A DNA stretch of 56,771 nt from a bacterium (GCA_027623425.1 JAQBTH010000002.1:1-56771), one strand, 5' to 3'; positions 9,519-45,225 are shown, counted from the first letter of the stretch. The notes: generated from the letters alone by a model not told the origin. A program made the numbers and translations.

Positions 9519-10112
9519 TTATGGCACGACGGCGAACTTACCTTTGCCTAGCTTATCCTTGCCATTGGCAAGTAAGATGTAGAAGTAGACTCCTGATGGT
9601 AGGCTAGCGCCCATTTCAACCTCGTTAATGGGGATGCGGTTTGAGATGCCTTGTGCGCCACCACTTGCGCCTTTTGGATAGTTTTTATCAAATATTTTAT
9701 GACCAAACATGTTGTATATGACTAAGCGAACATCCACATCGGTATTTAGCACGTAGCCTAAATTCGAATTTCCTCGGCTAAATTTAACAGGGTTTGGGTA
9801 AACCAATGGCTCGCTTAATAGTGCAGGCACGACAGTTCCATTTAAATCGCCTGCAGATAGTTCCAGCTCTCCTGCGCCGTCGTCAAATATAATGTCATCA
9901 AAAATGAGGTGAAATACCGTGCTATCTGTTAGGGTACTTTGGCCGTTGTTGATGAACCACACACCAGTGGTGGCGAAGGTGTTTGATTCGTTTGTTGCAA
10001 CAGCTTGATCGGGCACAAAATTACCACTGAATACATCAATGTTGTCTTCAGCCATGGTATTTCCGCCTAAACAAAAGACGATTAGTAGTGTCCAAATTAA
10101 ACGCGTTTTCAT
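9519..10112 (-). CDS. Secreted protein with T9SS-type (Por/FlgD-Ig-like) C-terminal sorting domain
   Basis: N-terminal signal peptide MKTRLIWTLLIVFCLGGNTMA. C-terminal ~90 aa shows the YPNP..., VRLVIYNMFGHKIF and LPSGVYFYILLANGKDKLGKGKFAVV pattern typical of Por_Secre_tail domains. Confidence 0.6.
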   Translation of the reverse strand: MKTRLIWTLLIVFCLGGNTMAEDNIDVFSGNFVPDQAVATNESNTFATTGVWFINNGQSTLTDSTVFHLIFDDIIFDDGAGELELSAGDLNGTVVPALLSEPLVYPNPVKFSRGNSNLGYVLNTDVDVRLVIYNMFGHKIFDKNYPKGASGGAQGISNRIPINEVEMGASLPSGVYFYILLANGKDKLGKGKFAVVP

Positions 10113-13558: not shown

Positions 13559-14683
13559 TTATTCGGGGTCTAAGTCCATATCAATTTCAGAGCCTGGGCG
13601 GTTGTCCATATTCATTTCGTCATCGTCGGAATTAAAACGACTCTTTTTTGATGTTTTTGGTGGTGTTTGGCTTTTGGGTTTGGCCTTATCGTCGGTTTTT
13701 ATGTCTTGCTCAGATTTATTTTCCTCGGTACTAACTTCAACTGGGGATTCCGGTAACTTGTAGCTGGTGATTGCGGCAACTAATTCTTTTTTGGCCTTTT
13801 CATTCATCCACGTCCACTTTGCTTTTCTTACCATTTCTTCTGCTTCTGTTTTGTCAGTGTTATGGATGGTATCAACGATTTTAAGTAGCGTGGTTTCAAG
13901 CGTATTTTTAAACTCAAATTGAGGTGTTTTTAGTCTGAAATTGCTTACCGTATTAGGCGCTTGTTTGTAGGTAATGTTGTCGTAAAATTCTGGTGTGAAT
14001 AGATGTTTTAATGTTTTAACAGGAATACGATCTTTTAACGCGTATTCGATGCGAGTTAAGTCTGTTAAGACGAGTGTGGCCATGAAATTATCGTATGGGG
14101 TGATGGTTTCGAGGGAAATTAGGGTGTTGCCAGATACCTCTGTTTCATCGAGATAGACCAGTTGAAACTTGTCTTTATCCGTAAAGAACTGCACGAGATA
14201 CCCTGTTTTTTCGTGTTTTAGTTTAGATGCGCGGCCAGACCAAATCCACGCATTTCCTGAGGGGTCTTTTGCACGGTTTTCACGTAACGATAATAAGGAT
14301 TCTTTGAGGTTTGATGCGGTGATGGTGACGCTGTTTTTGTTAGAGGCGATGGATTTAAATGTAATATTTTCTGAGGGGTCTTTTTCTTCCTCAATATCCC
14401 CTTGGCCCCAACTCATAATTTCAGGGGCTTCACCATCTAATATGCCAGATACAGCGAAGTACATGGTGGTGTCTAAAATGGAAAACGACGGAAGCGTGGT
14501 GTTTGATGTTGAGGCTATATTTTTACTGCTTACCACGTTTACGACGGCTGTTACGGTAAAATCTTTGCGTTCTTTCGTGTCATTGGGGGCTACTTCTTGG
14601 GTTACTTTTCCACACGATATTACGACCGCGAGTAACGCGCAACAAAGCCCCACCCCTAAGGCATTTGATTTTAGAGAGTTCAT
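13559..14683 (-). CDS. Hypothetical lipoprotein (374 aa) with Lys/Asp-rich C-terminal tail
   Basis: Lipobox-like signal MNSLKSNALGVGLCCALLAVVISC-G. No recognised domain. Co-oriented and tightly spaced with ORF 14692-15753 and tgt. Confidence 0.7.
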   Translation of the reverse strand: MNSLKSNALGVGLCCALLAVVISCGKVTQEVAPNDTKERKDFTVTAVVNVVSSKNIASTSNTTLPSFSILDTTMYFAVSGILDGEAPEIMSWGQGDIEEEKDPSENITFKSIASNKNSVTITASNLKESLLSLRENRAKDPSGNAWIWSGRASKLKHEKTGYLVQFFTDKDKFQLVYLDETEVSGNTLISLETITPYDNFMATLVLTDLTRIEYALKDRIPVKTLKHLFTPEFYDNITYKQAPNTVSNFRLKTPQFEFKNTLETTLLKIVDTIHNTDKTEAEEMVRKAKWTWMNEKAKKELVAAITSYKLPESPVEVSTEENKSEQDIKTDDKAKPKSQTPPKTSKKSRFNSDDDEMNMDNRPGSEIDMDLDPE

Positions 14684-14691
14684 ACGCCGAA

Positions 14692-15753
14692 TTATACCAC
14701 AGAGCCGAATTCACTTGGTGGTGTTGGATTTACTTTATCTACAGCACCACTTTGTTCGGGAGCTTGACCATTATGTTGAGGCATAATGCTGGCTGCACCG
14801 CTATTGGCCGCTGAACCAACGCGACTTTGTAAATCGACATCGCCCTCAATTTTATTTTCAGTGGAGGGCTTAACTAAATTATTGAGTAGGTCTTGTAGTT
14901 GTTTTTCAGCGTCATGTTGCATGCTTCTTGCATTATCAATAGTGGTTTCTTGAATGCCTCCCACTTTACCTACAGAGTCTTTTGAGAGTGTGGATGAAAC
15001 TTGGCCATTATCGAAGGAGACTCCGGATATGCCACCTAGATTTCCTAGGCGTTCCAGTTGAAAGTTAAGCGCATCATCATTTGTTTTATGAGCGGAGTCA
15101 CCTGAATTACCCGTCATATCCGCATCGGTAGATTCAATGCCCATAACGCGATTCATGCTGCGTTGTAATAGTGCTTGAACCGCGTCTTCTGCAATTTCGC
15201 GGCGCATTGCTTTGTATGTTTCGCCTGCTTTTCGCATAAATTCATTATCCATAAGGCCGCCTTTTGCGACGTCAAATAATTCATTAATTTGGTCTGGATG
15301 CACTTCTTCAAACGGATTTTGCATATTGGGTTGTTGAATGCCCTTTGCGCCCGATACACCACTAACGGTATTTTCTGTTATCGCGCCTGACCCACTTATT
15401 GCCTCGCCTGGTTTGATGGCGCCACCCATTGAACCGGCACTGCCACCAAAACCTGCTTTTGCAGGGTCTTTTAACAAATGTTCAAGTAAGCCAGTTTCCT
15501 TAAGGAATTTTAGTTTTTTCTGGATTTTTTTGATTTCATTTTTTAATTCTGGATCCTGAATCATGTCTCCAGCTTTGCCTAGTAACTTACCTAGCGTATC
15601 AATTTCGTGGGGCTGTATGCCATCGCCAATCATGTTTTGAATGCGCGCTAAAAGTGACATTAAAACATCTAATTCGCCTTTGGGCATGCCGCCTTGTTTG
15701 CCTGCGGTGGCAATTTGGCTGGTCAACGTCATTATTAAGCTTTCTAAACGCAT
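14692..15753 (-). CDS. Hypothetical Gly/Ser/Asn-rich helical protein (353 aa)
   Basis: Start set at ATG 15753 because it is preceded by AGGAG with 7-nt spacing; the tracked upstream ATG at 15783 has no SD. No TM or signal peptide and no recognised domain. Confidence 0.7.
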   Translation of the reverse strand: MRLESLIMTLTSQIATAGKQGGMPKGELDVLMSLLARIQNMIGDGIQPHEIDTLGKLLGKAGDMIQDPELKNEIKKIQKKLKFLKETGLLEHLLKDPAKAGFGGSAGSMGGAIKPGEAISGSGAITENTVSGVSGAKGIQQPNMQNPFEEVHPDQINELFDVAKGGLMDNEFMRKAGETYKAMRREIAEDAVQALLQRSMNRVMGIESTDADMTGNSGDSAHKTNDDALNFQLERLGNLGGISGVSFDNGQVSSTLSKDSVGKVGGIQETTIDNARSMQHDAEKQLQDLLNNLVKPSTENKIEGDVDLQSRVGSAANSGAASIMPQHNGQAPEQSGAVDKVNPTPPSEFGSVV

Positions 15754-15785: not shown

Positions 15786-15813
15786 TTATCGGTAAAAAGA
15801 GTTATTAACTTGC
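15786..15813 (-). promoter_or_regulatory. Sigma-28 (FliA/SigD-type) promoter candidate for operon 15753-12471
   Basis: Minus strand: GCAAGTTA - 12 nt - ACCGATAA (consensus TAAAGTTT-N11-GCCGATAA). The -10 octamer and spacer length are identical to the element at 23961-23988. The SD and ATG follow within about 30 nt. Confidence 0.55.
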
Positions 15814-20522: not shown

Positions 20523-20607
20523 TGGTGCGCGCGGAGGGAATCGAACCCCCACGCCTTACGGCACTAGATCCTAAGTCTAGCGCGTCTACCAATTCCGCCA
20601 CGCGCGC
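20523..20607 (-). tRNA. tRNA-Leu (anticodon UAG), long variable arm, CCA encoded
   Basis: Manual fold of the minus strand: GCGCGCG-TG-GCGG-AATTGGTAG-ACGC-G-CTAGA-CTTAGGA-TCTAG-TGCCGTAAGGCGT-GGGGG-TTCGATT-CCCTC-CGCGCGC-A-CCA. Confidence 0.92.
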
Positions 20608-20641
20608 ATATCATTCATTGGTTTGGTTCGCGTATTCTAAC

Positions 20642-20671
20642 AAAAAGCCAGCGTGACGGCAACACGCTGGC
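20642..20671 (-). terminator. Rho-independent terminator after ORF 20936-21679, just upstream of tRNA-Leu
   Basis: Minus-strand RNA: GCCAGCGUG-UUGCCGU-CACGCUGGC (9-bp GC-rich stem) followed by UUUUUG. Confidence 0.7.
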
Positions 20672-20808
20672 TTTAGTAGAAGGAGATGAAGACATGGCAA
20701 CGATGTAAAAAATACTACTTTGGGTATTCCGAGGAATCCCTCAATGTCTTCAAGAGCAATAATGCCTCATATGAAATGGCGATACTATCCACCAAGGTGT
20801 GTATTTAT

Positions 20809-20832
20809 TAAAACTCAACCATATGGTTGATG
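20809..20832. repeat. 24-nt repeat copy 1 containing perfect 16-bp palindrome TCAACCATATGGTTGA
   Basis: TAAAACTCAACCATATGGTTGATG, identical to 20904-20927. Confidence 0.95.
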
Positions 20833-20903
20833 GTGTTTGCTATCAAACGATAGGTGTATGTAGTGACAGGTAAATTGGGGTGTAATTTATCTTGTGTTTG
20901 ACC

Positions 20904-20927
20904 TAAAACTCAACCATATGGTTGATG
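20904..20927. repeat. 24-nt repeat copy 2 containing perfect 16-bp palindrome TCAACCATATGGTTGA
   Basis: TAAAACTCAACCATATGGTTGATG, 95 bp from copy 1 and 9 nt past the stop codon of ORF 20936-21679. Confidence 0.95.
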
Positions 20928-20935
20928 TGATAAAT

Positions 20936-21679
20936 CTATTGCGCCAAGCGCGCTTGTATCGCGCATGATGTAAAATAGCGGCTTAATTTTTTTTTGCTAT
21001 CTTCAAGCAATAATTCTGGTTGTTTTATAGTCATTAACACCGTTGTTATATCACGTTTTACGTGGCATTTTGGTAGAAACTCTAGTAATATAGCGCATTG
21101 GCCAGGCGTTAGTTTAGAGGACATCTCTAGTAAAATGGCAGCATATTGCCCTTCCTGAATCTCATATAGGAGAGGGCACTTCTCTTGGCATGTTTTTACC
21201 CAAAATAATGCGTCTTTCATGTTTTTTTTGGCGAGCGCAAGAGTGTCTTCTCCCAGAAGATTTGGGTTTTCTTGTATTAAATCAGGTATATTCTCTAATG
21301 CTATTTTTGCTAATGGTAAATTTATTTGTGCTTCTTCTAGTATTTCTACCAAGCCACCTAGTGCGTTTGGGGTGTGACTTAAATAGGTTTTTACTGCGTC
21401 TTGATTCAAAATGGTCATGACTGTGTTTCTTTCAACCGGCATTAAGAAACGTGATAATAGGTTGTATGCCAATAGAAATTGTGGCGAACTGGTTTGATGG
21501 GGAAAGATGTTTGTTAACAGCCTAGACTCATCGTTTATGGGAATATCATGTACGGCGCTCACGGCGTATTGTGGAGGCACGTTTACTGGTGATGCAGCAC
21601 GAGCTGTTAGTCTGTTTCTGCCGTCTTGCCATGACACATAGCAAGGGGGAGCCGTACTTGTTTGTCTTATATTTTCCAT
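20936..21679 (-). CDS. Hypothetical helical protein (247 aa)
   Basis: ORF only, looks AT-richer than the backbone by eye. No signal peptide or TM. Contains an A9 tract (20987-20995) coding KKK. Confidence 0.6.
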   Translation of the reverse strand: MENIRQTSTAPPCYVSWQDGRNRLTARAASPVNVPPQYAVSAVHDIPINDESRLLTNIFPHQTSSPQFLLAYNLLSRFLMPVERNTVMTILNQDAVKTYLSHTPNALGGLVEILEEAQINLPLAKIALENIPDLIQENPNLLGEDTLALAKKNMKDALFWVKTCQEKCPLLYEIQEGQYAAILLEMSSKLTPGQCAILLEFLPKCHVKRDITTVLMTIKQPELLLEDSKKKLSRYFTSCAIQARLAQ

Positions 21680-21814
21680 ATCAATTATCGCTTTCAGTTG
21701 GGCTACTATTTCATTTTTAATTTATTTAAATTTTGAATTATTCTTTTTATTCTTGTTTTTTTCACATATACTTAAATTTACATTCCCAAAATCTATATTA
21801 TCAGAGGAGTTTTT

Positions 21815-22987
21815 ATGGCCAGCGTTGCATTGCGTTTAGTTCGGAGTGGTACACGGCGGGTAGTTCCTGCTGTTGCGGGCTCAATCCAAAGAAGTTTTTC
21901 TTCTTCAATCAACGCGGGGACTCAGGTGCTATCCACACGGCCTCAGGTTGTAGTGGGTTTAGGTGAATTGGGGGGTCTTTTTGCCCGTGAGGCTAGTGCA
22001 ACAATGGTGGGGGCCCTCAAAAGAGAATCCACTCCTAATGGCGTAACTGTAACACGTTTTAATTATGATGCGACGGCGCCAGATCATGCTGAACAATTAC
22101 TTGAAACCGTGTTTACTCGCCATCCTGATGGTGCCGATATCATATATGCCATTGGTGCGTGCTCTGGTGATGCAGAGGGAAACCCGGATCTTGCGCATCA
22201 AGTGAACGTATTAGCCCCGCTTCAGCTTATGGCTGCTACGGCAGGAACTGGTGTGCGGACGGTGTTTTTTTCATCTATGGCGGCTCGAGAGGGTTTGGGT
22301 GCAATTGTTGGTAACGAACCCGCAAATGCTGTTCGTTTGTACGGTAGCCAAAAAGCAGAGCTTGAATCGGGTGTTCGGTTTCAGCATCGCAAAGGAAATC
22401 GTAATGTTACTGCACTTGGGGTGCCTGGAATGTTGCCCGATGTGACCCTATTTGAAGGTGACGTGCCTAAAATAGGTGGCGGTGGTTCTACGGATCCCAT
22501 GCCATTATATATTCAAGCTGCAATGTTGAATTTATTTGCCCATTCGAACGGTCAGCCAATACCTGTTCCGACGTTGGTTTTACCGCTTTTATCTGATTCA
22601 GAAACCGCTTTTACTACCCATAGAGCGTTTCGCGTGGGTATGCAGTGCCTACTTAGTAAAAGTGGGCCGTTTGAAACCCCTGTTGTGGGTGTGCCTGGGG
22701 CTGCCATAAGTTTGGAAATGGCGCAATTTGTATTGCAATCATCTGGTGTTCGAGGGGGCGTGCTACCAGTGGTTATTGGCCGTCCAGATATTCGAAATGA
22801 TTTTGTTGCGTTATGGCCAACCTCTCAGTCTGGGGATTCTGTTGGTAAAGCATGTTTTGGTAGTAATTCAGTTTTTGATTCGATTTTAAGTTGTGCGAAG
22901 GGGTTTTTCAGGGTACCGTATGCGGCTAATTTAGCTGCATTTAATGCGACCCTGGCCCGCATTTGGCCAGAGGGAGTTCCCAAATAA
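21815..22987 (+). CDS. Extended short-chain dehydrogenase/epimerase-fold protein, L-threonine 3-dehydrogenase-like, with 43-aa basic N-terminal extension
   Basis: Strong SD (AGAGGAG). VVVGLGELGG (GxGxxG), YGSQK (YxxxK), GGGGSTDPMPLYIQAA and a WP...D...K tail, colinear with motifs I recall from animal/bacterial TDH (GLGQLG, YGxSK, GGGTTDYAVQIF). Confidence 0.55.
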   Translation: MASVALRLVRSGTRRVVPAVAGSIQRSFSSSINAGTQVLSTRPQVVVGLGELGGLFAREASATMVGALKRESTPNGVTVTRFNYDATAPDHAEQLLETVFTRHPDGADIIYAIGACSGDAEGNPDLAHQVNVLAPLQLMAATAGTGVRTVFFSSMAAREGLGAIVGNEPANAVRLYGSQKAELESGVRFQHRKGNRNVTALGVPGMLPDVTLFEGDVPKIGGGGSTDPMPLYIQAAMLNLFAHSNGQPIPVPTLVLPLLSDSETAFTTHRAFRVGMQCLLSKSGPFETPVVGVPGAAISLEMAQFVLQSSGVRGGVLPVVIGRPDIRNDFVALWPTSQSGDSVGKACFGSNSVFDSILSCAKGFFRVPYAANLAAFNATLARIWPEGVPK

Positions 22988-23027
22988 GTGGGTGTTTGTT
23001 TTTGTGCCTGCGCGTTATACTGGTGCC

Positions 23028-23807
23028 ATGAATAAACGACACCTTATATCACTGTTTGTTTTGGCGATGGCTCTTTTTGGTTCAACATCACTTGTTTTTG
23101 CATCAGAGTCATCTACTCACCCCGATGGTTTGTTTTTTACCGGGGCAATTGGTGGTGCGTTTAATGCGCCCACTAATGTGCAGTTTCGCCAAAAAGGTGA
23201 AGATGATGTAAGCGTATTTGCCAATTATTCTAATAAATCATTTGAAGATTATCCTTATTGGACCATGCGGTTTGAAAATTGGAATGCGAATAACGCGTTA
23301 GAATTTGAATTAATTCATCATAAAATTTATTTAGAAAATACCCCCGATGAAGTGGCTTATTTTAATGTGAGTGATGGGTATAATATGTTTATGCTAAACC
23401 GCGCTAGGCGAATTGGGCCGCGTATTTGGCGTGTGGGTGGCGGTGTTGTGATTGGGCATGCCGAAAGCAAGGTGCGTGGCCAAAAATTAGATTCCAGTGA
23501 GGGGCTTGGGGATGCGGGATTTTTTGTGGGTGGGCCTGCGGTTCAAGCCGGTGTTGAGTGGCGCCGTTTTACTACAGAAACGTTGTTTTTTAGTTTGGAA
23601 CAAAAATTAACGGCCGCTTATACCGAGTTTCCCATAAACGATGGTGTTGTAAGCGGGTTTAATTTTGCGTGGCATATTAATCTTAGGTGGGGCTCTAAAA
23701 AACCTGGCACTGGCGCGTCTTTGAAAGATCATGTGGTATTTTGGTCGCCGTTGGCAATGCCGTTTACCTTAGATGCGGTTTTTCCTAGGTATATTGATAA
23801 ACAGTAA
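23028..23807 (+). CDS. Putative outer-membrane beta-barrel protein (259 aa)
   Basis: Signal peptide MNKRHLISLFVLAMALFGSTSLVFA-S. Alternating aromatic/hydrophobic strands (FNFAWHINLRWG, TLFFSLEQKLTAAY). Start placed at ATG 23028. Confidence 0.6.
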   Translation: MNKRHLISLFVLAMALFGSTSLVFASESSTHPDGLFFTGAIGGAFNAPTNVQFRQKGEDDVSVFANYSNKSFEDYPYWTMRFENWNANNALEFELIHHKIYLENTPDEVAYFNVSDGYNMFMLNRARRIGPRIWRVGGGVVIGHAESKVRGQKLDSSEGLGDAGFFVGGPAVQAGVEWRRFTTETLFFSLEQKLTAAYTEFPINDGVVSGFNFAWHINLRWGSKKPGTGASLKDHVVFWSPLAMPFTLDAVFPRYIDKQ

Positions 23808-23846
23808 CTAAAATGTGTCATATGTCACGCTAGGGTGTGACCTTGG

Positions 23847-23872
23847 GATTCCCATCGAGTTGGGAATGACGC
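23847..23872 (+). repeat. Hairpin repeat copy (GGGAATGACGG family)
   Basis: GATTCCCAtcgagtTGGGAATGACGC, 40 nt after the stop of ORF 23028-23807. Confidence 0.75.
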
Positions 23873-23960
23873 CTGTGAAATGACTGTTGCGACGTGTGGT
23901 TTGAAACCGACTCATGATGCGTATGCACTTTTCTAGCGCAAGGAGTGAGTGTGGATGTAA

Positions 23961-23988
23961 TAAAGTTTTGCGTGCGGGCTACCGATAA
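23961..23988 (+). promoter_or_regulatory. Sigma-28 (FliA/SigD-type) promoter candidate for the 24058-28327 cassette
   Basis: TAAAGTTT (exact -35 consensus) - 12 nt - ACCGATAA (7/8 of GCCGATAA), about 70 nt upstream of the ATG at 24058, which has a GGAGG SD. Confidence 0.65.
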
Positions 23989-24057
23989 TGCCAACAGAAT
24001 GACTTGGGAACAAAACCGAGTCGGGAACTGTTTAACAGTTTATTGGAGGTATTTATT

Positions 24058-25803
24058 ATGGCAGATGTAGGTGGTGCCGTAGGTGGTGCAAAAAATTTCC
24101 GTTCAGTTAAGGGCGATGTGTCAGATTCGAATAGGCAAAATACTAACTTAGCGCGTTCAGCGTGTCTTGCTGCTTTATTAGTTAAAGGTGGTAAAACGAC
24201 AGCGATGGGTGCCGCTGATAGGGTAAAAGTGGCTACTATGTTGTCTGGTTTTTCTCATCAAAAAGAACTCGTAAAAAGTGAGTATGCTCAGCTTACAAGA
24301 GATGTTAAAGCATCAATTAAAGGCGAATCTGATGTCAGTCCAAATGTAGAACGATTTCAATCCCAATTGAGTTTAGCAGTAAAGGCAATGGGTAAGGCTG
24401 TGAGTAAAATGCAGACTACTGAAGCTGTTAAGGATACAACTTATAATAAATTATTAGGGGCACAATTTGCGCGATTGGATGCCATTCAGGGATTGTTAGA
24501 GGCCAAACAGGATGTTGGAATAGCACATATTCAATTTGTGCATGACTTGGCACACAGCTCACCATCGCCTAGTGTTACTAAAGAATTAATTCAGTATGCT
24601 AACTTACTATTTCAAGAGATTGGAACAACGGCACTTAGTAAAGATTTAGGATTAAACCCAGAAGGCATTCAAGATGCTATTTCTGAGAATAGGTTTCCTA
24701 AGATTCAAGTGAATAGAGATGTACTTGATATAGTTCCATACTCGTATGAGGTATTTAAACCTACGGTCAACGCTCTTAAAGGTGGGCCACAATTAGTTGG
24801 AAAAGTAAGTTTGGAAATGTTTACTGAAATTGCATCAGCGAATTTTAACGTTAACCTTGAACAGGTAGGTGCTTTGAAGGATATGATTACTTTTGTTTCC
24901 GATTCTATCTTATTTTTGGATCAGGCATCGCAACTTGAAATGGGTGATTCAGATGCTAGAGAGATTGAAGAACTTCGAGGATTGTTTGTGGGTCAAATTT
25001 CATTTTTATCCGAAATTATTGTGAAAGTGGCAGATCACCTTATCGCATTTCATGATTCAGTTGCTGCGAATGACATGTTGCAAGTAGCGGATTTAATAGA
25101 AGTTGTTTTAGGTTGTATGACGCGTTCAGGTGACCCATCGCAGGATGCAAACTTGAAGACTCTTTATCATAGCTATGATGCGATTGCTACGCACTTTTAT
25201 CGGACTGAAGTGGGAATGGCTCAGCTGGCGTCATTTCAGCAACCGTTAGATGTGTTTACTGCTACTGCACGTGCGCAAGTTAGTTTGGTTTTGGAGGGAG
25301 AGTATGTATTTGAGTTGCATAACCCTATGGCTGTTATACGAGAAAATGCACCCGGAGCAGCAGTAAAGACTGATTCTGAGGTGGTTCCAAATAGGACGAT
25401 GCGCTCGGAATTACAGGAGGCTAAGAGGGGGCTTCAAAATGTTAGTCTAAGCTTGGTGCCTCTTTCTATGTTTGTTGATTTAAAAAATGCTGCACATGCT
25501 ATTTTGGGCGATTGTAGTACTCATGTGGATCGCAAAGGAGCTGTGGCTGATGGGGGTAGCCATCTCTCTGAGGATGTTCAATTTACTTCTGAGATGCAAC
25601 CACAATTGGATCGTTTTAAAGCTGATTTAAAACTTATGAGTCAACGCTATCCTGCACAATATGAGGTTTTGTGTAAATTATCTGATGTTTGTCGTGATGT
25701 AGGCGCCGTTTCGGCCCCACTACCCTTTAAAGGAGGGGTGTCGCAAAGCGCAACGTTGAATATGAGGGGTATCGCATCAACCTCACTGGGGGAACTGCGG
25801 TAA
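24058..25803 (+). CDS. Hypothetical large helical protein, paralogue A (581 aa)
   Basis: GGAGG SD 8 nt upstream. Gly-rich N-terminus MADVGGAVGGAK. Colinear shared motifs with ORF 26342-28327 (MAD..GG, ERFQ, Y.TEVG). Confidence 0.8.
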   Translation: MADVGGAVGGAKNFRSVKGDVSDSNRQNTNLARSACLAALLVKGGKTTAMGAADRVKVATMLSGFSHQKELVKSEYAQLTRDVKASIKGESDVSPNVERFQSQLSLAVKAMGKAVSKMQTTEAVKDTTYNKLLGAQFARLDAIQGLLEAKQDVGIAHIQFVHDLAHSSPSPSVTKELIQYANLLFQEIGTTALSKDLGLNPEGIQDAISENRFPKIQVNRDVLDIVPYSYEVFKPTVNALKGGPQLVGKVSLEMFTEIASANFNVNLEQVGALKDMITFVSDSILFLDQASQLEMGDSDAREIEELRGLFVGQISFLSEIIVKVADHLIAFHDSVAANDMLQVADLIEVVLGCMTRSGDPSQDANLKTLYHSYDAIATHFYRTEVGMAQLASFQQPLDVFTATARAQVSLVLEGEYVFELHNPMAVIRENAPGAAVKTDSEVVPNRTMRSELQEAKRGLQNVSLSLVPLSMFVDLKNAAHAILGDCSTHVDRKGAVADGGSHLSEDVQFTSEMQPQLDRFKADLKLMSQRYPAQYEVLCKLSDVCRDVGAVSAPLPFKGGVSQSATLNMRGIASTSLGELR

Positions 25804-25973
25804 TGCCAAGAATGGTTCAAGGGAAGAGAAAAGATCACCCTCTCGTTGAGCTACGAGCGGCCGATAAAACTCCGTTACCTGGGAACAAAACTCCTGGCAG
25901 TATTGTTGTGGGTGATATGGCTAATATAGTACTGGCAATGGCTGTTCATGGTTATCCGAAAGCTGCAGTCTAA
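25803..25973 (+). CDS. Small ORF (56 aa), start overlaps the upstream stop (TAATG)
   Basis: Not in the ORF track because it is under 60 aa. Translation: MPRMVQGKRKDHPLVELRAADKTPLPGNKTPGSIVVGDMANIVLAMAVHGYPKAAV. Fills an otherwise non-coding 170-nt gap. Confidence 0.4.
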   Translation: MPRMVQGKRKDHPLVELRAADKTPLPGNKTPGSIVVGDMANIVLAMAVHGYPKAAV

Positions 25974-25996
25974 ATCAAATGGAAAGGATTAACAAT

Positions 25997-26329
25997 ATGA
26001 CGATTAAAGAACAGTTTCAGCAGGTAGTGAGTGCGCCCGATTCATCGGTGTTAATTACGAATCATCGGGATACCAATCGCCGTGATTATCGGCATTATTA
26101 TTTACGGGTTACCATGGATGGCATGCAGCTTAAGGAAGAATCAATGACCTTGCGCCGCGATTATACCTATTCGTTTACTGATGATTCCCTTGAAATGGAT
26201 GGTATTAAAAAAGGGCAAGATTTTGTAGATGAGTTTTATGACAAGCTAGCCAAGATTGCCAAAGATGTGGAAGCAAACCAAGCGTTTGTTTTTGAACATA
26301 AACCAGAGCAATCTGAGACAGATAAATAG
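25997..26329 (+). CDS. Small acidic hypothetical protein (110 aa)
   Basis: Start chosen at ATG 25997 (GGAAAGGA about 8 nt upstream) rather than 25979. D/E-rich C-terminal half. Confidence 0.65.
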   Translation: MTIKEQFQQVVSAPDSSVLITNHRDTNRRDYRHYYLRVTMDGMQLKEESMTLRRDYTYSFTDDSLEMDGIKKGQDFVDEFYDKLAKIAKDVEANQAFVFEHKPEQSETDK

Positions 26330-26341
26330 GAGGAAATTAAA

Positions 26342-28327
26342 ATGGCAGATGCATTAGGTGGGCTACAAGGACAAGGTGTTATTGCAGGAATGCGTCAAAA
26401 GGCTGTTGATTCTCGGGATGCGGCATTGCAGGCCTTAGAAAATCGATTTGCAACTGAAGACTTGCGTGGAGCGGAGCAAATGAAGGGGTTTTCCGCAAGC
26501 GCTGTTGCTGTGTTCTTAACGGGAATGGGTGGTGGTGATAAGGGCGCCTTTAACTCGGCAATGTTGAATTATTCTCAGGCTGGTGGAAAAGGGCCAATGT
26601 ATGAGGTTAAATCTAGAATGGGGCAAAAATCAGCGGTTAAAACTGACGCGTTTACAACGCCATTGGAGAGATTTCAAAAAGCGGTTGGCGATGTGCTTTC
26701 CAATATCGAAAAATTGAGAGGAAAACCGGTAGATGTTAAAGGACACGCTCGTTTAAAAGCGGATGTTATTGCTTTGGCGGACTTGCTAAGTGATGCGTTT
26801 TCTAAAGGTATTTCTTTGCGATCGGAATCGCTGGACAATTGTATGGCGGTTTTTGATTCTGTATTAACGGGTGGAGACATGCCATTGGGGCAGTTGAAAG
26901 ATGATCTGGGTGATTTTGTTCAAAACTCCCAAGATATGGTTGTTCTTCATCAGTGCGGGCTTGTTCCGTTTTTGGATAAAACAGAGTTAACGGCTGGAGA
27001 ATTTAAACCGTTAATTAGGTTATTGACTCAGCATACTGAACGTTTGGCTCATTTAGGGAATGCTTCTGTTTTGGATGGTTTAAAAGAGGCGGTTAGTAAC
27101 GTTTTTATGGAAAAAATTATGCCTTTATTAACAACTCTGGATTATCTTACTCCAGGTTCTGAGTCTAATGGCATATTAATGGCATTTTGTCAGGGTAATG
27201 GTGACTTTTTGGGGGTGGATACCGCTACAAAACTGGGGTTTCTGGATTTGGTAGTTGAAAATGCGTGTTGTTCGCCTATCGCCGATGATTTAGTTGTTGC
27301 ACGGAATTTACTTTTCGAGGTTGTGCAACATGCGTCAGTTGGCGACATGCGTTCAGGTGAGCCTCCTTTAGGGCAGCAGTTTAAAGACATGATGGATGCT
27401 CTTGGTGATGCGTGGTATGGCACCGAGGTAGGAACGATGGCTGTTAACGCGTTGTTTGAAGGGATGGATGGCAAGCTGGGAGTAGAGAGCGGCCAAATTA
27501 CGGGTTTAACGAAGTTGGTAGGATCAGCGCAAAAACGTGCAGATGAGGCAAAGGGAGGGTCTGTTACAGATGATTTACACCCTGAACAATATTTGCGTTT
27601 ATCAAAAACTGAGGGCGCCTACTCAGCTAGGGGTAAAGGGGTTGCGGAAGCGACCCGAGACCGCTTTCGTGAGTCCTTTCCGTTTCCTATTGTGCCGTAC
27701 CGAGCAGTTGCGCTACTTGCAGATATCGCAAAAGGCGGATTAATGGTGTCAGAAAACAGTGGTGGAGTGTCGGTTCAGACGGATCGTTTTGATCGATTAC
27801 CTAAAGAAGGGCGGTTGACGTATCTTCCTGACCAAGAAGTGCCGAGCTTCACATTTAAAGGTGAGCCCGTTAAACGAGATGTTGTATGTGTTGATGGAAA
27901 AGAAGGGGCGCCCGCTTTGAGTGAAAATGCATATGATTTAATGGAAACTAAATTACCAGGTGCGTTTAAGAATGAGGCGAGATTAGAGGCTTTTAAACGG
28001 GTTTCAGCAGCGTTTGGTGATATTGCAAGAGCGGGTTCAGCAGTGCCTAGAAAAGTAGTTTCCACAAATCATTTCTACACGATGCCGGCCATGCAAGGGG
28101 TGTTGCGAACGCTATTGCTTTCCGTAGGCGAAAGTTTAGCTGCTCCCGGGTATGAACCTGGTACAGACCGATTAACATTTGCAGATAAGTGTGCAGGATT
28201 AGATATTGATGCATCTAGTGATCCAATGGCCGTGATAACGTATTCTAGAAGTCCTGTAAGTCGTGTTGATATGTTATCTATGTATCAACTGATGGCATGG
28301 GCACCAAGTTCAGAGACTATGGCCTAG
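26342..28327 (+). CDS. Hypothetical large helical protein, paralogue B (661 aa)
   Basis: AGGAGG SD. N-terminus MADALGGLQGQG. Shares ERFQ and AWYGTEVG motifs in the same order as paralogue A. Confidence 0.8.
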   Translation: MADALGGLQGQGVIAGMRQKAVDSRDAALQALENRFATEDLRGAEQMKGFSASAVAVFLTGMGGGDKGAFNSAMLNYSQAGGKGPMYEVKSRMGQKSAVKTDAFTTPLERFQKAVGDVLSNIEKLRGKPVDVKGHARLKADVIALADLLSDAFSKGISLRSESLDNCMAVFDSVLTGGDMPLGQLKDDLGDFVQNSQDMVVLHQCGLVPFLDKTELTAGEFKPLIRLLTQHTERLAHLGNASVLDGLKEAVSNVFMEKIMPLLTTLDYLTPGSESNGILMAFCQGNGDFLGVDTATKLGFLDLVVENACCSPIADDLVVARNLLFEVVQHASVGDMRSGEPPLGQQFKDMMDALGDAWYGTEVGTMAVNALFEGMDGKLGVESGQITGLTKLVGSAQKRADEAKGGSVTDDLHPEQYLRLSKTEGAYSARGKGVAEATRDRFRESFPFPIVPYRAVALLADIAKGGLMVSENSGGVSVQTDRFDRLPKEGRLTYLPDQEVPSFTFKGEPVKRDVVCVDGKEGAPALSENAYDLMETKLPGAFKNEARLEAFKRVSAAFGDIARAGSAVPRKVVSTNHFYTMPAMQGVLRTLLLSVGESLAAPGYEPGTDRLTFADKCAGLDIDASSDPMAVITYSRSPVSRVDMLSMYQLMAWAPSSETMA

Positions 28328-29820
28328 ATCTGTTTGTCTCTCATGTGCGGAAAGGCAATGACATCGCGAATAGAAGGTTGGTCTGTAAGTAGCATGACCA
28401 CACGGTCAATACCGATCCCAAGCCCGCCCGTAGGTGGCATGCCATAGCTTAATGCGGTCACAAAATCTTCATCTGTCATATGGGTTTCATCGAAGCCGGC
28501 TTCACGGGCTTTTGTCTGGTCTTCGAACCGGGCTTTTTGGTCGATAGGGTCGTTTAACTCGCTAAATGCGTTCGCGATTTCCATCGTGTTAATAATCAGC
28601 TCAAATCGCTCCACATACCGTGGGTCATCGGCTTTGCGCTTTGCCAGTGGCGACGTTTCCCACGGATGATCCATAATAAAGGTGGGCTGAATGAGTTTGT
28701 TTTCTACGCATTTATCATAAATTAAATTGATCAATTCGCCGCGGTGGTATTGCTCAGGAATATCACAGCCTAATTCTTTGGCGCGTTTGGCAAGCCCTGC
28801 TTCATCAAGGTTAATGTCGGTGTCTGCGTATTCCTTTAATGCGTCTTTCATGGTGAGGCGACGAAATGGTGGTGCAAAATCTAATTCAGTGCCTTGATAG
28901 GTAATTTTAGTGCTGCCTGTATGGGCTTTTACCAGTTCGCTTAGTAATGTTTCGGTTAATGCCATAATGCCGTGGTAATCAGTGTAGGCCTGGTAAAGTT
29001 CCAAAAGGGTGTATTCAGGGTTGTGTTTGTAGCTTACCCCTTCGTTCCTAAACACGCGCCCAATCTCAAAAATGCGTTCAAATCCGCCCACCATGAGGCG
29101 TTTCAATGGCAATTCCAGGGATATTCTCATGTATAGTTTTTGGTCTAGGGTGTTGTGATGGGTTTCAAATGGGCTCGCCGATGCGCCACCATAAATGGTT
29201 TGTAACACGGGCGTTTCAACTTCCATAAAATTATCTTTATGTAGGTAGTCGCGAAAAAAATGTATAATTTTGGCCCGGTCTTGGAACACGTGACGCACTT
29301 CTGGGTTTGCAATTAAATCCACATAGCGTTGGCGATAGCGTGTTTCTTTGTCTTGTAGGCCATGAAATTTTTCTGGTAGTGAATGTAGTGACTTTGTAAG
29401 AAGGGTAAATTTGGCCAGGCGTATGGAAAGCTCTCCGCGCTTACTAACAAAGGGTTTTCCTTCAATGCCAATGATGTCGCCCACATCTAAATGTATTAGA
29501 TCGTGGTAGACTTCGTCGCCCAATTCATCGATATTGGCATAGTATTGAACGGCGGCATTTTCATCGGCAATATTACCAAAAGAGGCTTTTCCATGACCGC
29601 GTTTGGCCATTAATCGGCCGGCTAAAATTACCGTGTCCTCTGATTTTTCGCCACTTTCTAAGTGCGCGTATTTTTCACATATCTCTTTAATGGAATGGGA
29701 TCGGTCAAATTTATATTTAAATGCGTCTTCGCCTTTTTCACGATAGTGCGCTAATTTTTTAAGACGAACTTCCGATTCACTTAAACCATCGTATTGCGTT
29801 TGTTCTGTTGTCTGGCTCAT
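28324..29820 (-). CDS. lysS: Lysyl-tRNA synthetase, class II
   Basis: OB-fold N-terminal domain (AGRLMAKRGHGKASF), class II motifs (FRNEG, GGLGIGIDRVVMLL). Confidence 0.96.
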   Translation of the reverse strand: MSQTTEQTQYDGLSESEVRLKKLAHYREKGEDAFKYKFDRSHSIKEICEKYAHLESGEKSEDTVILAGRLMAKRGHGKASFGNIADENAAVQYYANIDELGDEVYHDLIHLDVGDIIGIEGKPFVSKRGELSIRLAKFTLLTKSLHSLPEKFHGLQDKETRYRQRYVDLIANPEVRHVFQDRAKIIHFFRDYLHKDNFMEVETPVLQTIYGGASASPFETHHNTLDQKLYMRISLELPLKRLMVGGFERIFEIGRVFRNEGVSYKHNPEYTLLELYQAYTDYHGIMALTETLLSELVKAHTGSTKITYQGTELDFAPPFRRLTMKDALKEYADTDINLDEAGLAKRAKELGCDIPEQYHRGELINLIYDKCVENKLIQPTFIMDHPWETSPLAKRKADDPRYVERFELIINTMEIANAFSELNDPIDQKARFEDQTKAREAGFDETHMTDEDFVTALSYGMPPTGGLGIGIDRVVMLLTDQPSIRDVIAFPHMRDKQI

Positions 29821-29941: not shown

Positions 29942-31270
29942 ATGAAAAATTTCAGACTACTATTTTTAATTGTTATATTGATCGGTGCTGCCGTGGCCTT
30001 CACCCAAATCCCTACGCGACTTGGCTTGGACTTGCAAGGTGGCACGCGTTTGGTATTGGAAGCAAAAGACACACCAGACCAACCTGTGGATTCAGACACC
30101 GTAATAGGTGTTATGTCTGTTATTCGCAACCGTGTAAATGGTTTGGGTGTTACTGAGCCCGTGCTGCAGCGCAAGGGATTGCGGCAAATTGTGGTGGAAT
30201 TACCTGGTGTAAAAGACCCAGAGCGCGCGATAAAGTTGATTGGGGAAACAGCGTTACTGGAATTTGTTGCGGCAGATTGGGCGCCTGAAAATTTGGCAAG
30301 TTTGTCAAAAGAAAAACAGGAAATTTTGGTTGGTAAAAATGTAAAGGTGGCTTCGATGCCAATTACAGATGCCTCTGGAAAAGTTGTTGCAACGCGGACA
30401 TTAATACTGCATCGCACAGAGTTGACGGGTTCTGATTTGAAATATGCGAATCCGGGTACGGATGAATTGGGGAACCCAGTGGTCAGTATTGCCTTTAAAA
30501 AAGAAGGAACTAAACGGTTTGCTGACTTAACCCGTTCGAATATGGGAAAACCGATTGCAATAGTGCTTGATGGCAAAGTTGTTTCAGCACCGAATGTGCG
30601 TGCGGTTATTAATAATGGTCAAGCGGTTATAGAGGGTGGGTTTTCAGTTCAGGAAATGCGTGATTTGGTTATTAAATTAAAAGCCGGTTCGTTGCCAGTG
30701 CCGGTTGAAATCGTGTCGAATCGCATTGTTGGTCCTACTTTGGGCCGGGACTCTATCGCAAAGAGTAAGGTTGCAGGCATGATTGGTTTGCTTATTGTTT
30801 CGTTATATATGGTGGTGTTTTACCGCGTAGGTGGCTTTGTTGCCAATTTGGCGTTGTGCGCTTACCTTCTTATTGTTATGGCCCTTTTGAAGGTGTTTGA
30901 TGCCACTCTCACATTGCCAGGGATTGCAGGGGTTATTTTAACCTTGGGCATGGCAGTAGATGCTAACGTGATTATTTTTGAGCGCATTAAAGAAGAGATT
31001 AGCTTAGGTGAAACAGTTTTAGGTGCGATTAACTCCGGGTATTCCAAGGCTTTTGTTGCGATTTTAGATTCGAATATCACCACGATGATAGCGGCGGTGG
31101 TGCTGTTTTGGCTGGGTACGGGTACCATAAAAGGTTTTGCGGTTACTCTTAGCATCGGCATTGTGGTGAGTATGTTTTCTGCTATTTTCGTAACGAAATT
31201 ATTATTAACAGGAGTGGCCAGAATGCGTGGAATGACTGCGCAGTGGTTGTTTGGTGGGGTGAAATCATGA
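29942..31270 (+). CDS. secD: Protein translocase subunit SecD
   Basis: LGLDLQGGT, periplasmic P1 domain, six C-terminal TM helices (GIAGVILTLGMAVDANVIIFERIKEE). Start placed at ATG 29942. Confidence 0.93.
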   Translation: MKNFRLLFLIVILIGAAVAFTQIPTRLGLDLQGGTRLVLEAKDTPDQPVDSDTVIGVMSVIRNRVNGLGVTEPVLQRKGLRQIVVELPGVKDPERAIKLIGETALLEFVAADWAPENLASLSKEKQEILVGKNVKVASMPITDASGKVVATRTLILHRTELTGSDLKYANPGTDELGNPVVSIAFKKEGTKRFADLTRSNMGKPIAIVLDGKVVSAPNVRAVINNGQAVIEGGFSVQEMRDLVIKLKAGSLPVPVEIVSNRIVGPTLGRDSIAKSKVAGMIGLLIVSLYMVVFYRVGGFVANLALCAYLLIVMALLKVFDATLTLPGIAGVILTLGMAVDANVIIFERIKEEISLGETVLGAINSGYSKAFVAILDSNITTMIAAVVLFWLGTGTIKGFAVTLSIGIVVSMFSAIFVTKLLLTGVARMRGMTAQWLFGGVKS

Positions 31271-32207
31271 ATCAGATGAAACGCTTTAAATTGGTTCAAA
31301 AACGGAATTTATGGTTTGGTTTTTCATTAATTATCATTGCGGTGGGTTTTGGATTGATGGGGTTGCGTGCGGTTAGTCATGAGCCTGTTCTTAACTTTGG
31401 TATTGATTTTACGGGTGGCACGAGTTTTATTGTAAAATTTGACTCCCTTAATGCGCGTTTGCTCGGTAAGGGAAATGAACAGGACACTCAAATTGCATTT
31501 ATAGAAGAATTACGAGGTGTGTTGTCGCAATTTGGACTGGGTAAAAGTCAAATTCAGATTACCCAGGATAAAGCGGTTATCATTCGTACTGTGGCTTTAG
31601 ATAATGACCGACGCGTTTCGGTGCTGCGTTCGTTAGAGGAACGGGTGGGCGTGATGGAACTGTTGGAAGTGGATGTTATTGGCCCCACAATCGGGCAAGA
31701 GCTTAAGGAGCAATCTTTTTGGATTGTGTTAATGGTTAGTATTGCGTTATTAATTTATATTACGTGGCGATTTGAATTGGTGTTTGGTGCGGCGGCATTA
31801 ATTGCGGTGTTGCATGATGCGATGGTGATTATTAGTTTTAGTTCCATTACGAACTTAGAGATTAATACGGCATATGTGGCTGCGTTATTAACCGTATTGG
31901 GGTATTCGATTAATGATACTATTGTCATATTTGACCGTATTCGGGAGCAATTACAAGCAAAAGGAATAAAATCACCTTGGATACATTGATTGATGTGTCT
32001 GTTACACAAATGTTTACTCGGTCTGTTCATACTTCTATAACGACCCTAATTGTAGTGGGTTCATTGCTGGTTTTTGGCGGAGCTACAATTAAGACGTTTA
32101 CGATTGTACTACTTGTGGGAATAATAAGTGGTACGTACTCATCAATTTTCATAGCAAGCCCGTTGTTGTACGTTATGTATCCGCGGCTTGGGAAGGAAAC
32201 AGGATAA
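31267..32207 (+). pseudogene. secF: Protein translocase subunit SecF interrupted by a -1 frameshift in an A-rich tract (or an assembly error)
   Basis: ATGA overlap with secD. Frame 1 ends at 31989 (..IREQLQAKGIKSPWIH*). The conserved SecF C-terminus (LDTLIDVSVTQMFTRSVHTSITTL...GTYSSIFIASP) continues in the -1 frame from about 31960. Confidence 0.85.
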
Positions 32208-32978
32208 TTGAATCCTACAAAAAAGAAAGCATCGCCTAAGCAGGCAACACAGTCGACTGATAAATCAGCGCCTACTCGAAATCAATTGGTTGAAGATCAC
32301 CTTCACTTGGTAAAGTATGTGGTAAATCGGATGGCAGTGAGTTTACCCCCAGGAATGGGGCGTGATGACCTTTTAAGTATTGGTTGCTGGGGTTTGATTG
32401 ATTCTGCTGAGAAATTTGATACATCAAAAGGTGTTCTTTTTAAAACGTATGCGATCACTCGCATTCGCGGTGCTATTTTAGATGAATTACGCCGTCATAG
32501 TTTGGGCGGGCAAACATTATGCCGAAAAGCCAGAGCCTTGGAAAAGGCGGTGCGATTGGTAGAAAGTCGCTACGAAGGTAAAAAGGCGCCTGATTCAGAA
32601 GTGGCGAAGGAATTGGAGATTACCATAGAGAAATTACGTCATTTATACACTGAAGTGGCGCATTCCTTTTTAGTGTCTTTGGATGAATATACGTATAGCG
32701 ATGATGATTCTGAATCGTATGTGGATGGTTTAAAAGACGAAAAAATGCCAGAGCCTGCAGAGGCAATGGAAGCGTTGGAATTAAAAGAAACCATTATGAC
32801 TCATATCGATTCGATTCCACAGCAAGAAAAATTAGTGCTGACGTTGTATTATTACGAAGAATTGACCTTTAAAGAAATTGGCCGTGTTTTAAATGTGAGC
32901 GAGTCTCGTGTGTCGCAGATCCATACCAAAGCGATTGTTCGCATGCGGGGACGTTTAAAGCATTCTGTGACTTATTAG
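32208..32978 (+). CDS. fliA: RNA polymerase sigma factor, sigma-28 (FliA/WhiG) family
   Basis: Region 2 LLSIGCWGLIDSAEKFDTSKGVLFKTYAITRIRGAILDELRR; region 4.2 HTH LTFKEIGRVLNVSESRVSQIHTKAI; 256 aa with no region 1. TTG start directly after the secF stop. Confidence 0.85.
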   Translation: MNPTKKKASPKQATQSTDKSAPTRNQLVEDHLHLVKYVVNRMAVSLPPGMGRDDLLSIGCWGLIDSAEKFDTSKGVLFKTYAITRIRGAILDELRRHSLGGQTLCRKARALEKAVRLVESRYEGKKAPDSEVAKELEITIEKLRHLYTEVAHSFLVSLDEYTYSDDDSESYVDGLKDEKMPEPAEAMEALELKETIMTHIDSIPQQEKLVLTLYYYEELTFKEIGRVLNVSESRVSQIHTKAIVRMRGRLKHSVTY

Positions 32979-42511: not shown

Positions 42512-43066
42512 TAGTTTAAACGCACCTTGTCGAATTATGTTGGGGGGGTGAGCCGTGAAATCCACTAGTGTAGATGCGGTGGTTTGGGCTGGGGCTGTGG
42601 GGGGTGTATAGACGAAATCAATGTGTGATTCAATCTCTTTGGGTGGGTTAAGAGGATTCCATGCGATGGTGTTACCGGAATAGTTGGCGCTGGTGGAAAT
42701 TATGGGTAAAGGGGGAATGTGTGTGGATGGAATGCGTATGGCAATAGTGTCTCTGTTTCCGGTAAGTGTGTGGCTTACATTTGGGTGTTTTGGTAAAATT
42801 GCCGTTAGGGGTGCTGGCCAATATTGTGTGAGTGTTTCTAGTAGTGTTTGGGGTAGATTTGCAGTGTATAGGGATAAATGGCTTATGTTGGGTAGCACTA
42901 TAATAAAGCCCATATTTAAGTCTCGTTTTTTAAGGTGGCAAATGCGCGCGGCATTTTCTGGTGTTGGTAAGGCAATTATTCCCAATATGGTATCAGAATG
43001 GGCTAATCCAACTTCATTGTTTATAAGGGCGATTCTCAGATCTTCTGGTGTTGATATGCGTTTCAT
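42503..43066 (-). CDS. tsaC: L-threonylcarbamoyladenylate synthase (YrdC/TsaC family)
   Basis: TILGIIALP, KKRDLNMGFIIV, WPAPLTAILP, IAIRIPS, PIISTSANYSG. Start set at the ATG that forms an ATGA overlap with the upstream ATPase stop. Confidence 0.8.
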   Translation of the reverse strand: MKRISTPEDLRIALINNEVGLAHSDTILGIIALPTPENAARICHLKKRDLNMGFIIVLPNISHLSLYTANLPQTLLETLTQYWPAPLTAILPKHPNVSHTLTGNRDTIAIRIPSTHIPPLPIISTSANYSGNTIAWNPLNPPKEIESHIDFVYTPPTAPAQTTASTLVDFTAHPPNIIRQGAFKLLT

Positions 43067-44451: not shown

Positions 44452-44458
44452 GTTGCTA

Positions 44459-44770
44459 TTATACCAAGGTTAAATGATTCCCACAATTTGGGCAGGTGTC
44501 TGTTGCCCGTGTGGCTTCATGGCCACATTTACTACACAGCGTTCCAGATAGTTTAGGTGTGTAGGCCTTGTGTTTTGGTTTGGGCGGCGCACCAGGATGA
44601 CGGCGCTCTCTGGCAAAAATAACGATAACAATGGCTAAAATTGGCAGGGCAAATGTGGCAACGCCTGCCGCTATGGCGAGTAGGGGGCTTTTTCGTTGTT
44701 GATATACGTAGTAACCAATCCAGGCCGCTGATAAGAGTCGGATTATTAAAGTTCCAGGAGGCATTGGCAA
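44459..44770 (-). CDS. Small membrane protein with two TM helices and a C-terminal zinc ribbon
   Basis: LLSAAWIGYYVY and LLAIAAGVATFALPILAIVIVIF, followed by CSKCGHEATRATDTCPNCG. Confidence 0.6.
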   Translation of the reverse strand: MPMPPGTLIIRLLSAAWIGYYVYQQRKSPLLAIAAGVATFALPILAIVIVIFARERRHPGAPPKPKHKAYTPKLSGTLCSKCGHEATRATDTCPNCGNHLTLV

Positions 44771-44772
44771 AA

Positions 44773-45210: not shown

Positions 45211-45225
45211 TTTGACTATCCTTTA

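Follow-up and report, generated by a model that had tools for sequence, protein, structure and literature searches.

Does a dedicated promoter drive the cluster of orphan genes that begins at position 24058 of the window, i.e., the 56,771-nt stretch of bacterial DNA analyzed here (GCA_027623425.1 JAQBTH010000002.1:1-56771), and if so, which sigma factor would read it? An initial annotation had proposed a near-consensus sigma-28 promoter at 23961-23988, hereafter P1, and had tied it to a FliA/WhiG-family sigma factor encoded further downstream. All coordinates given there for the two boxes, the spacer, and the GGAGG-N8-ATG arrangement proved correct. The features around P1 are as follows.

23961 to 23968, + strand: P1 -35 element, TAAAGTTT, matching the consensus at 8/8 positions
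23969 to 23980, + strand: P1 spacer, tgcgtgcgggct, 12 nt, of a sequence that is not kept in relatives
23981 to 23988, + strand: P1 -10 element, ACCGATAA, matching at 7/8 positions, with an intact CGA core at -13 to -11 and A for G at -15
23996, + strand: predicted transcription start, an A
23996 to 24057, + strand: predicted 5′ leader, 62 nt, carrying the GGAGG
24045 to 24049, + strand: Shine-Dalgarno GGAGG of gene 1, 8 nt 5′ of the ATG at 24058
24058 to 25803, + strand: gene 1, the first gene 3′ of P1, encoding a 581-aa orphan with no Pfam/NCBIfam match

Both strands of the window were scored against the consensus TAAAGTTT/GCCGATAA, with spacers of 10 to 13 nt. P1, at 15/16, was the only site to deviate from the sigma-28 consensus at no more than one position; the runners-up carried three mismatches and all other sites at least that many. 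An exact first-order Markov calculation based on window composition yielded 0.0065 (spacers of 11 to 12 nt) or 0.013 (10 to 13 nt) chance sites with at most one mismatch per window, and a 20-Mb simulation returned 0.028 per window from just five events, in agreement with the calculated figure within noise. Scaled to a 2.5-Mb genome, the same expectation amounts to ∼0.3 to 0.6 sites; the match is thus rare in the window and not decisive genome-wide. At three mismatches or fewer, a shuffle test found one site versus 0.82 expected, i.e., no discrimination at this threshold. A chance resemblance, in which P1 would be an AT-rich intergenic stretch without any role in transcription, could draw on the genome-wide expectation, on a window no richer than shuffled sequence at the looser threshold, and on the selection of P1 as the best of many possible motifs, but it is at odds with the minute expectation within the window and with the placement of the element. 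Indeed, the 250-nt intergenic gap that holds P1 runs from the stop at 23807 to the ATG at 24058, and P1 faces gene 1 at a distance of 69 nt from this ATG, in the right position and orientation relative to a strong ribosome site. Only 3 of the 13 CCGATAA heptamers in the window are located upstream of a gene start rather than inside long ORFs, and each of these three is oriented toward the start of a gene downstream.

A sigma-70 scan of the gap revealed no competitor other than a site at 24032-24059, which was rejected as the gene 1 promoter because its -10 overlaps the start codon. The transcription start was predicted from published numbering of the -10 element, which spans -15 to -8 as GCCGATAA in the Pseudomonas aeruginosa fliC promoter complex (PMC12784957) and is numbered C-13/G-12 in the E. 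coli sigma-28 complex (10.1101/2020.01.02.893370). Setting C23983 at -13 places +1 on A23996.

P1 deviates from the textbook arrangement at two points. In P. aeruginosa, changes at either -15 or -14 barely affect transcription when introduced singly and are severe in combination (PMC12784957); the A-for-G mismatch of P1 thus falls at a tolerant position. As for the spacer, the initial annotation had remarked that it exceeds the E. coli optimum by one nt and is shared with a second site at 15786-15813. The E. coli spacing is 11 nt, as in tsr (TAAAGTTT-N11-GCCGAAAA; PMC4183435). The 12-nt length is no defect, since it equals that of the WhiG2 consensus T(A/C)AA-N16-GCCGATAA (PMC12871210), when its -35 is written TAAA, and that of Chlamydia pneumoniae hctB (TNAAG-N15-GCC), which is one nt longer than the gamma-proteobacterial TNAAG-N14 (PMC3333780); chlamydial spacing preferences were drawn from secondary sources.

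Conservation was assessed in relatives that share the neighborhood of P1, which includes the following genes.

23025 to 23807, + strand: signal-peptide, outer-membrane-like gene, the synteny anchor 5′ of P1, with no Pfam family
25997 to 26329, + strand: conserved 110-aa gene, with likely ATG at 25997 (ORF 25979-26329), 80% identical to P0004 and 68% to P0005
26342 to 28327, + strand: gene 3, encoding a 661-aa orphan, polymorphic in the population according to contig comparisons

Within the reference genome collection, the MAG SI072_bin188 (L002) comes closest; its sigma factor is 61% identical, and it is syntenic with the window on both sides of a variable interval. Homologs of the 110-aa protein led to two closer relatives, both metagenomic contigs. 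L084 (2 kb) encodes an 80% identical homolog of the 110-aa protein and has flanking genes ∼76% identical in DNA, whereas L083 (20 kb) encodes a 68% identical homolog and an 84% identical sigma-28, and is syntenic with window positions 11.9 to 38.7 kb. The outer-membrane-like protein is 74% identical to its L084 counterpart and 57% to that of L083. Gene order in both contigs is tRNA-Leu flank, outer-membrane-like gene, short ORF, and 105-aa gene; neither contig has the 581-aa or the 661-aa gene, and the site occupied by the 581-aa gene in the window holds an ORF of 69 aa in L084 and of 133 aa in L083.

The two boxes of P1 recur in this setting. In L084, TAAAGTTT-ttggcgtgttt-ACCGATAA occurs at 1363-1389, 3′ of the outer-membrane-like gene (-35 octamer at 1363-1370, N11), and is followed by the GGAGG-N8-ATG of the 69-aa ORF, an arrangement identical to that of the window. 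In L083, TAAAGCCT-N12-ACCGATAA (6/8 plus 7/8) is found at 9929-9956, 44 nt 5′ of the 105-aa gene, and a second ACCGATAA with a weak -35 precedes the 133-aa ORF. Under the Markov model, a stretch of 450 nt on a single strand would contain an exact match at all 15 positions, as in L084, with a probability of 3.6e-6, and a match with at most two mismatches, as in L083, with a probability of 0.003. When the gaps of the window and L084 are aligned globally, agreement is patchy outside the two boxes, the ribosome site, and a single upstream block, and the spacers of the window, L084, and L083 differ in sequence, with lengths of 12, 11, and 12 nt, respectively. Two kept boxes around a free spacer are the pattern expected of a selected sigma-factor site, as judged from these alignments. 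Such recurrence at the orthologous position, exact in L084, amid diverged spacers and surroundings, speaks strongly against chance resemblance, which we regard as highly improbable. The window, L083, and L084 are mutually related, so these sites are not fully independent, and the lineage consensus rests on two to three loci. The motif did not appear in L002 before its homolog of the 110-aa gene, and the strain contigs L001 and L082 end before reaching P1. Scanning metagenomes with the 110-aa family gave no hit, and a scan with the outer-membrane-like protein returned three loci of 36% identity in unrelated contexts that lack the motif and are uninformative. The expectation of a conserved element was thus borne out at the orthologous position in L084 and L083, with the qualification that conservation concerns the expression site rather than the cassette.

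A decaying or silent ancestral promoter, with gene 1 either unexpressed or read through from the outer-membrane-like gene, would agree with the finding of no terminator-like site between the stop at 23807 and P1, and with gene 1 being a lineage-specific insertion relative to L083 and L084. It also has a parallel in Chlamydia trachomatis, where good in vitro promoters can be unused in vivo, i.e., four promoters transcribed in vitro by sigma-28 polymerase are unbound in the cell (PMC12282069). Likewise, E. coli FliA binds many intragenic sites that give no detectable transcript (PMC4183435); sequence alone thus cannot prove promoter use. However, decay predicts an eroded element, whereas the window copy is the best match of all (8/8 plus 7/8), and the same promoter type is retained in three genomes, which makes a silent relic very unlikely.

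A second sigma-28-type site, also reported in the initial annotation, lies on the opposite strand.

15786 to 15813, - strand: second sigma-28-type site, GCAAGTTA-N12-ACCGATAA, with boxes and spacing kept in relatives
14692 to 15753, - strand: gene for a 353-aa glycine/serine-rich orphan 3′ of the second site, with no family and with orthologs in L002 and L083

This site has four mismatches, three of them in the -35; judged by its sequence alone it is no better than chance, as ∼32 sites with no more than four mismatches should turn up per window. It shares with P1 the same A-CCGATAA -10 and the same 12-nt spacing. The orthologous gap holds GCAAGAAA-N12-ACCGATAA in L083 (3805-3778; also written GCAAGAAA-N12-ACCGATAAtaatgat) and ACATGTTT-N12-AACGATAT in L002 (587-560). 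Spacer sequences differ among the window, L083, and L002; the boxes and the 12-nt length are kept. Conservation before an orthologous gene in three genomes suggests that the second site is probably a real promoter. The 353-aa protein that it faces is probably disordered. A 374-aa lipoprotein-like orphan, kept in L083 and without family match, is also encoded 3′ of the second site, within 13559-15753 (- strand).

The factor expected to read both sites is encoded in the window.

32208 to 32978, + strand: cognate FliA/WhiG-family sigma factor, scoring 237 bits against TIGR02479 (cutoff, 189.6)

The family assignment of the initial annotation thus holds. The protein scored 214 bits against NF005413 (cutoff, 201), and its best NCBIfam match was the WhiG equivalog NF004935 at 246 bits, short of the cutoff of 343; the chlamydial equivalog NF004572 gave 143 bits, well under its cutoff of 378. 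It aligns full-length with Streptomyces WhiG (6pfv; E = 6e-51, the best PDB match) and with E. coli FliA (6pmi), and the order secD-secF-sigma is kept in L002 and L083. In the window, secF (31243-32204) is split into two frames 5′ of sigma-28 by one base missing at ∼31956 relative to L001, where the gene is intact (313 aa); the split reflects either a misassembly or a frameshift particular to this strain.

DNA-contacting residues reported for the initiation complex of E. coli sigma-28 (10.1101/2020.01.02.893370) were mapped onto this protein. In E. coli numbering, T69, R74, R84, R95, R98, K208, and R220 are kept, as is D81; changes affect 5 of the 12 listed residues (H26Y, R34S, Q63K, Q73T, and R94C), and R58K is conservative. 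The SRVSQ segment, which holds the equivalents of P. aeruginosa S224 and Q228 that read the -35 element (PMC12784957), is invariant. Residues 98 to 103 read SLGGQT in the window, L002, and L083, and usually DWVPRS in FliA/WhiG. Within this segment, E. coli R91, which aligns with the P. aeruginosa R97 that contacts guanines at -15 and -14 of the extended -10 (PMC12784957), is replaced by Q (Q102). Given these altered contacts, R91Q among them, the real specificity of the factor could differ from the textbook consensus. Seven of the eight candidate sites of the lineage, which represent two to three independent loci, have A rather than G at -15. An A at this position would fit the arginine-to-glutamine change in the sigma factor; with only two to three independent loci, we put forward this sigma/promoter co-variation as a hypothesis, not as a result.

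The same substitutions could be taken to mean that another factor binds the element, either a group-3 sigma under the RsbW/STAS-like pair encoded at 44773-45573 or a dimeric transcription factor. The window does encode an RsbW-like kinase and a STAS protein, so that a partner-switching module exists, and the full set of sigma factors lies beyond the window. However, the boxes match sigma-28 specifically, including the CGA core that separates them from a sigma-70-type -10, the spacing is that of known sigma-28/WhiG promoters, and the asymmetry of the boxes argues against a dimeric repressor site. Moreover, every relative examined encodes a FliA/WhiG-family factor in a syntenic position. Recognition by a different factor is thus quite unlikely, and sigma-28 remains the preferred reader of P1.

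The genes behind P1 have little in common with known proteins. The 581-aa protein had no homolog among 5.8 billion clustered proteins and matched only a 98% identical strain fragment among 1.84 billion representatives; its AF2 model is all-helical and unusable (pLDDT, 43). A strain fragment was likewise the sole homolog of the 661-aa protein. Since these searches return strain fragments only, the databases hold no strict orthologous cassettes. The 110-aa gene is the only cassette gene with homologs, a distant one of which adjoins tRNA-Leu in L002 (E = 1e-7). The AF2 model of its product (pLDDT, 75.7) comprises a beta-sheet plus one long helix, and its best PDB fold match has an E value of only 0.44, which leaves a type III secretion/flagellar chaperone fold unsupported. 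Searches of nine orphan proteins against Pfam, NCBIfam, PADLOC, and PHROGs yielded no usable match; the sole hit, to a PHROG connector (E = 0.0095), was ignored. With no family, fold, or defense-system match, the proposed analogy to late secreted substrates and their chaperones is unsupported here. The term paralogue cassette has a weak basis: the resemblance between the 581-aa and 661-aa proteins is slight (E = 0.008 over 83 residues), and their genes have in common a 35-nt ribosome-site/start segment of 74% identity. A shared N-terminal motif (∼AAL..L..RF) among the variable ORFs, with E values of 0.06 to 0.2 in a seven-sequence database, is not claimed.

Gene 3 varies among strains. From 27273 to the right, L001 (Scaffold_4022) and the window share 99.97% identity, and the 685 nt to the left of this breakpoint (L001 12549-13233) encode an unrelated N-terminal half of the 661-aa gene. 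Scaffold_730, from the same assembly as Scaffold_4022, ends at approximately window position 27307 and resembles an assembly-graph branch. L082 (98% identical; 2143-2221) has an indel at window 27122-27173. Breakpoints in the 661-aa gene thus lie near 27122-27173 and 27273-27307.

A further sigma-28-like site is located between gene 1 and the 110-aa gene.

25841 to 25867, + strand: candidate internal promoter P2, TCTCGTTG-N11-GCCGATAA, with a perfect -10 (25860-25867) and a -35 of 4/8

P2 is followed by ACCTGGGAACAAAAC, a 14/15 copy of a 15-mer 3′ of P1, and the window has just two occurrences of the 12-mer TGGGAACAAAAC (24005 and 25880), each 12 to 16 nt past CCGATAA (segments 23961-24016 and 25841-25891). 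The twin 12-mer/15-mer suggests duplication of the promoter-leader segment when gene 1 arrived. P2 may sit within a 56-aa ORF called in a strain contig and is thus graded as a candidate only. The leader downstream of P1 can fold into a hairpin at 24001-24022 (loop GAACAAAA; -11.2 kcal/mol, z = -3.5), which was rejected as a conserved element on finding it unmatched in P2, L084, and L083; since it is not kept in L084 or L083, function is not claimed for it.

The cassette belongs to an interval that starts at a tRNA gene.

20523 to 20607, - strand: tRNA-Leu, anticodon TAG, the left edge of the variable interval, also present in L002 and L083

The interval from tRNA-Leu to lysS (window 20523-29820) differs in every relative. 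It measures 7.7 kb with six genes in the window, ∼2 kb in L083 (8297-10379), and ∼0.65 kb with two small ORFs in L002 (5183-6138), where tRNA-Leu and lysS are in opposite orientation too. It behaves like a tRNA-linked variable island, and no integrase or mobile-element gene was seen in it. The segment between tRNA-Leu and the 3′ end of a 247-aa gene contains, at 20798-20927, a 35-nt direct repeat in two copies that show 86% identity, lie 95 nt apart, and each include the perfect 16-nt palindrome TCAACCATATGGTTGA; the first copy falls within a stretch that aligns with L084 at 82% identity. An Rfam search returned tRNA only.

Other regulatory genes were noted in the window. A row on the - strand at 43063-45573 encodes a STAS protein (45226-45573), an RsbW-like kinase/anti-sigma (44773-45210), a zinc-ribbon protein (44459-44770), and a type II/IV secretion ATPase (43063-44451); its STAS/RsbW-like genes form the partner-switching module mentioned above, which could control a sigma factor. 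At 3410-6241 (- strand), a 943-aa ORF joins RsbRD_N, a sigma-54 AAA+ activator, a Fis-type HTH, a trypsin-like protease, and two PDZ domains, in effect a fusion of an enhancer-binding protein with an HtrA-like protease; the same gene is called on the scaffold. GC skew is positive in all 2-kb bins over the 56.8 kb regardless of gene orientation, consistent with one replication arm.

The initial annotation had seen no flagellar gene, and we likewise found none in the searched ORFs of the window or the adjoining 10 kb. This holds for the larger window ORFs searched against Pfam, for the called genes in 10 kb of the same scaffold past the left end of the window, and for the window-aligned parts of L002 and L083, which together cover a small fraction of the genome. 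Nor did the cassette proteins match any flagellin, hook-associated, FlgM, FliS/FliT/FlgN, chemotaxis, or motor family in Pfam or NCBIfam. P1 has the two boxes of FliA class 3 flagellar promoters in E. coli/Salmonella and Pseudomonas (TAAAGTTT-N11-GCCGATAA), with the same -35 octamer, CCGATAA core, and distance to the predicted start, differing in its 12-nt rather than 11-nt spacer and in the A rather than G at -15; unlike class 3 regulons, it precedes orphans instead of flagellin, chemotaxis, or motor genes.

Sigma-28 at work outside motility has several precedents. In Chlamydia, it operates apart from any flagellar system on very few genes, none of them flagellar, and ChIP-seq in C. trachomatis detected binding only at hctB and tsp (PMC12282069). 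The genes behind P1 likewise match no flagellar family and the spacing of P1 is that of C. pneumoniae hctB, but the window sigma factor is not the chlamydial ortholog and the P1 targets are unrelated to hctB or tsp. WhiG is a sigma-28-family factor taken over for nonmotility functions (PMC12871210). The WhiG of Streptomyces/Actinomycetota is the best sequence match for the window sigma factor, and its promoter spacing is identical to that of P1; no RsiG-like anti-sigma factor was identified. The host is not an actinomycete by composition or envelope, given its ∼44% G+C, its LPS-heptose-pathway genes, and its BamA. Finally, in the nonflagellated Legionella oakridgensis and L. longbeachae, FliA persists after loss of the flagellar regulon and controls other genes (PMC5655016). 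Those species retain FlgM, whereas none of the window proteins compared with Pfam resembled FlgM.

Taken together, the match, rarity, position, and conservation of P1 and the family of the sigma factor, all read directly from the DNA, lead us to infer initiation and sigma dependence, i.e., that P1 is a functional sigma-28 (FliA/WhiG-class) promoter, with a probability of about 0.8. The extent of the operon and its biological role are inferred as well and are worded here accordingly as predictions. In the proposed mechanism, holoenzyme containing the 32208-32978 sigma factor would engage TAAAGTTT via sigma region 4.2 and ACCGATAA via regions 2.4/3.0. Transcription would start near A23996 and yield a leader of ∼62 nt with the GGAGG-N8-ATG of gene 1. 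This transcript would include the 581-aa gene and probably extend across the 110-aa and 661-aa genes, with possible help from the candidate internal promoter at 25841-25867. P1 would thereby mark a conserved expression site between the outer-membrane-like gene and the 105- to 110-aa gene, at which the orphan ORF differs by relative. A more speculative extension, which we hold only tentatively and consider doubtful, is that sigma-28 has been taken over for a swappable expression site beside tRNA-Leu, with a first cargo ORF of 69, 133, or 581 aa depending on the relative and with one cargo gene that is mosaic in a single lake population, the cargo possibly consisting of polymorphic secreted or surface proteins, and with a matched R-to-Q shift in the sigma factor and G-to-A shift at -15 of the promoter.

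P1 belongs to a well-known promoter class, sigma-28 promoters being textbook elements, and in view of the precedents in Chlamydia, Streptomyces, and nonflagellated Legionella it adds no new principle. What is mildly unusual is that the promoter is kept while its cargo changes, that one cargo gene is polymorphic, and that sigma factor and promoter may have shifted together. For this uncultured lineage, P1 provides a first regulatory handle on genes that have no homologs among billions of proteins. The sites identified here point to at least two loci that may be co-regulated, the variable cassette and the gene for the 353-aa disordered protein. If the cargo is secreted or surface-exposed, the locus would make a tidy case of regulated variable-gene expression.
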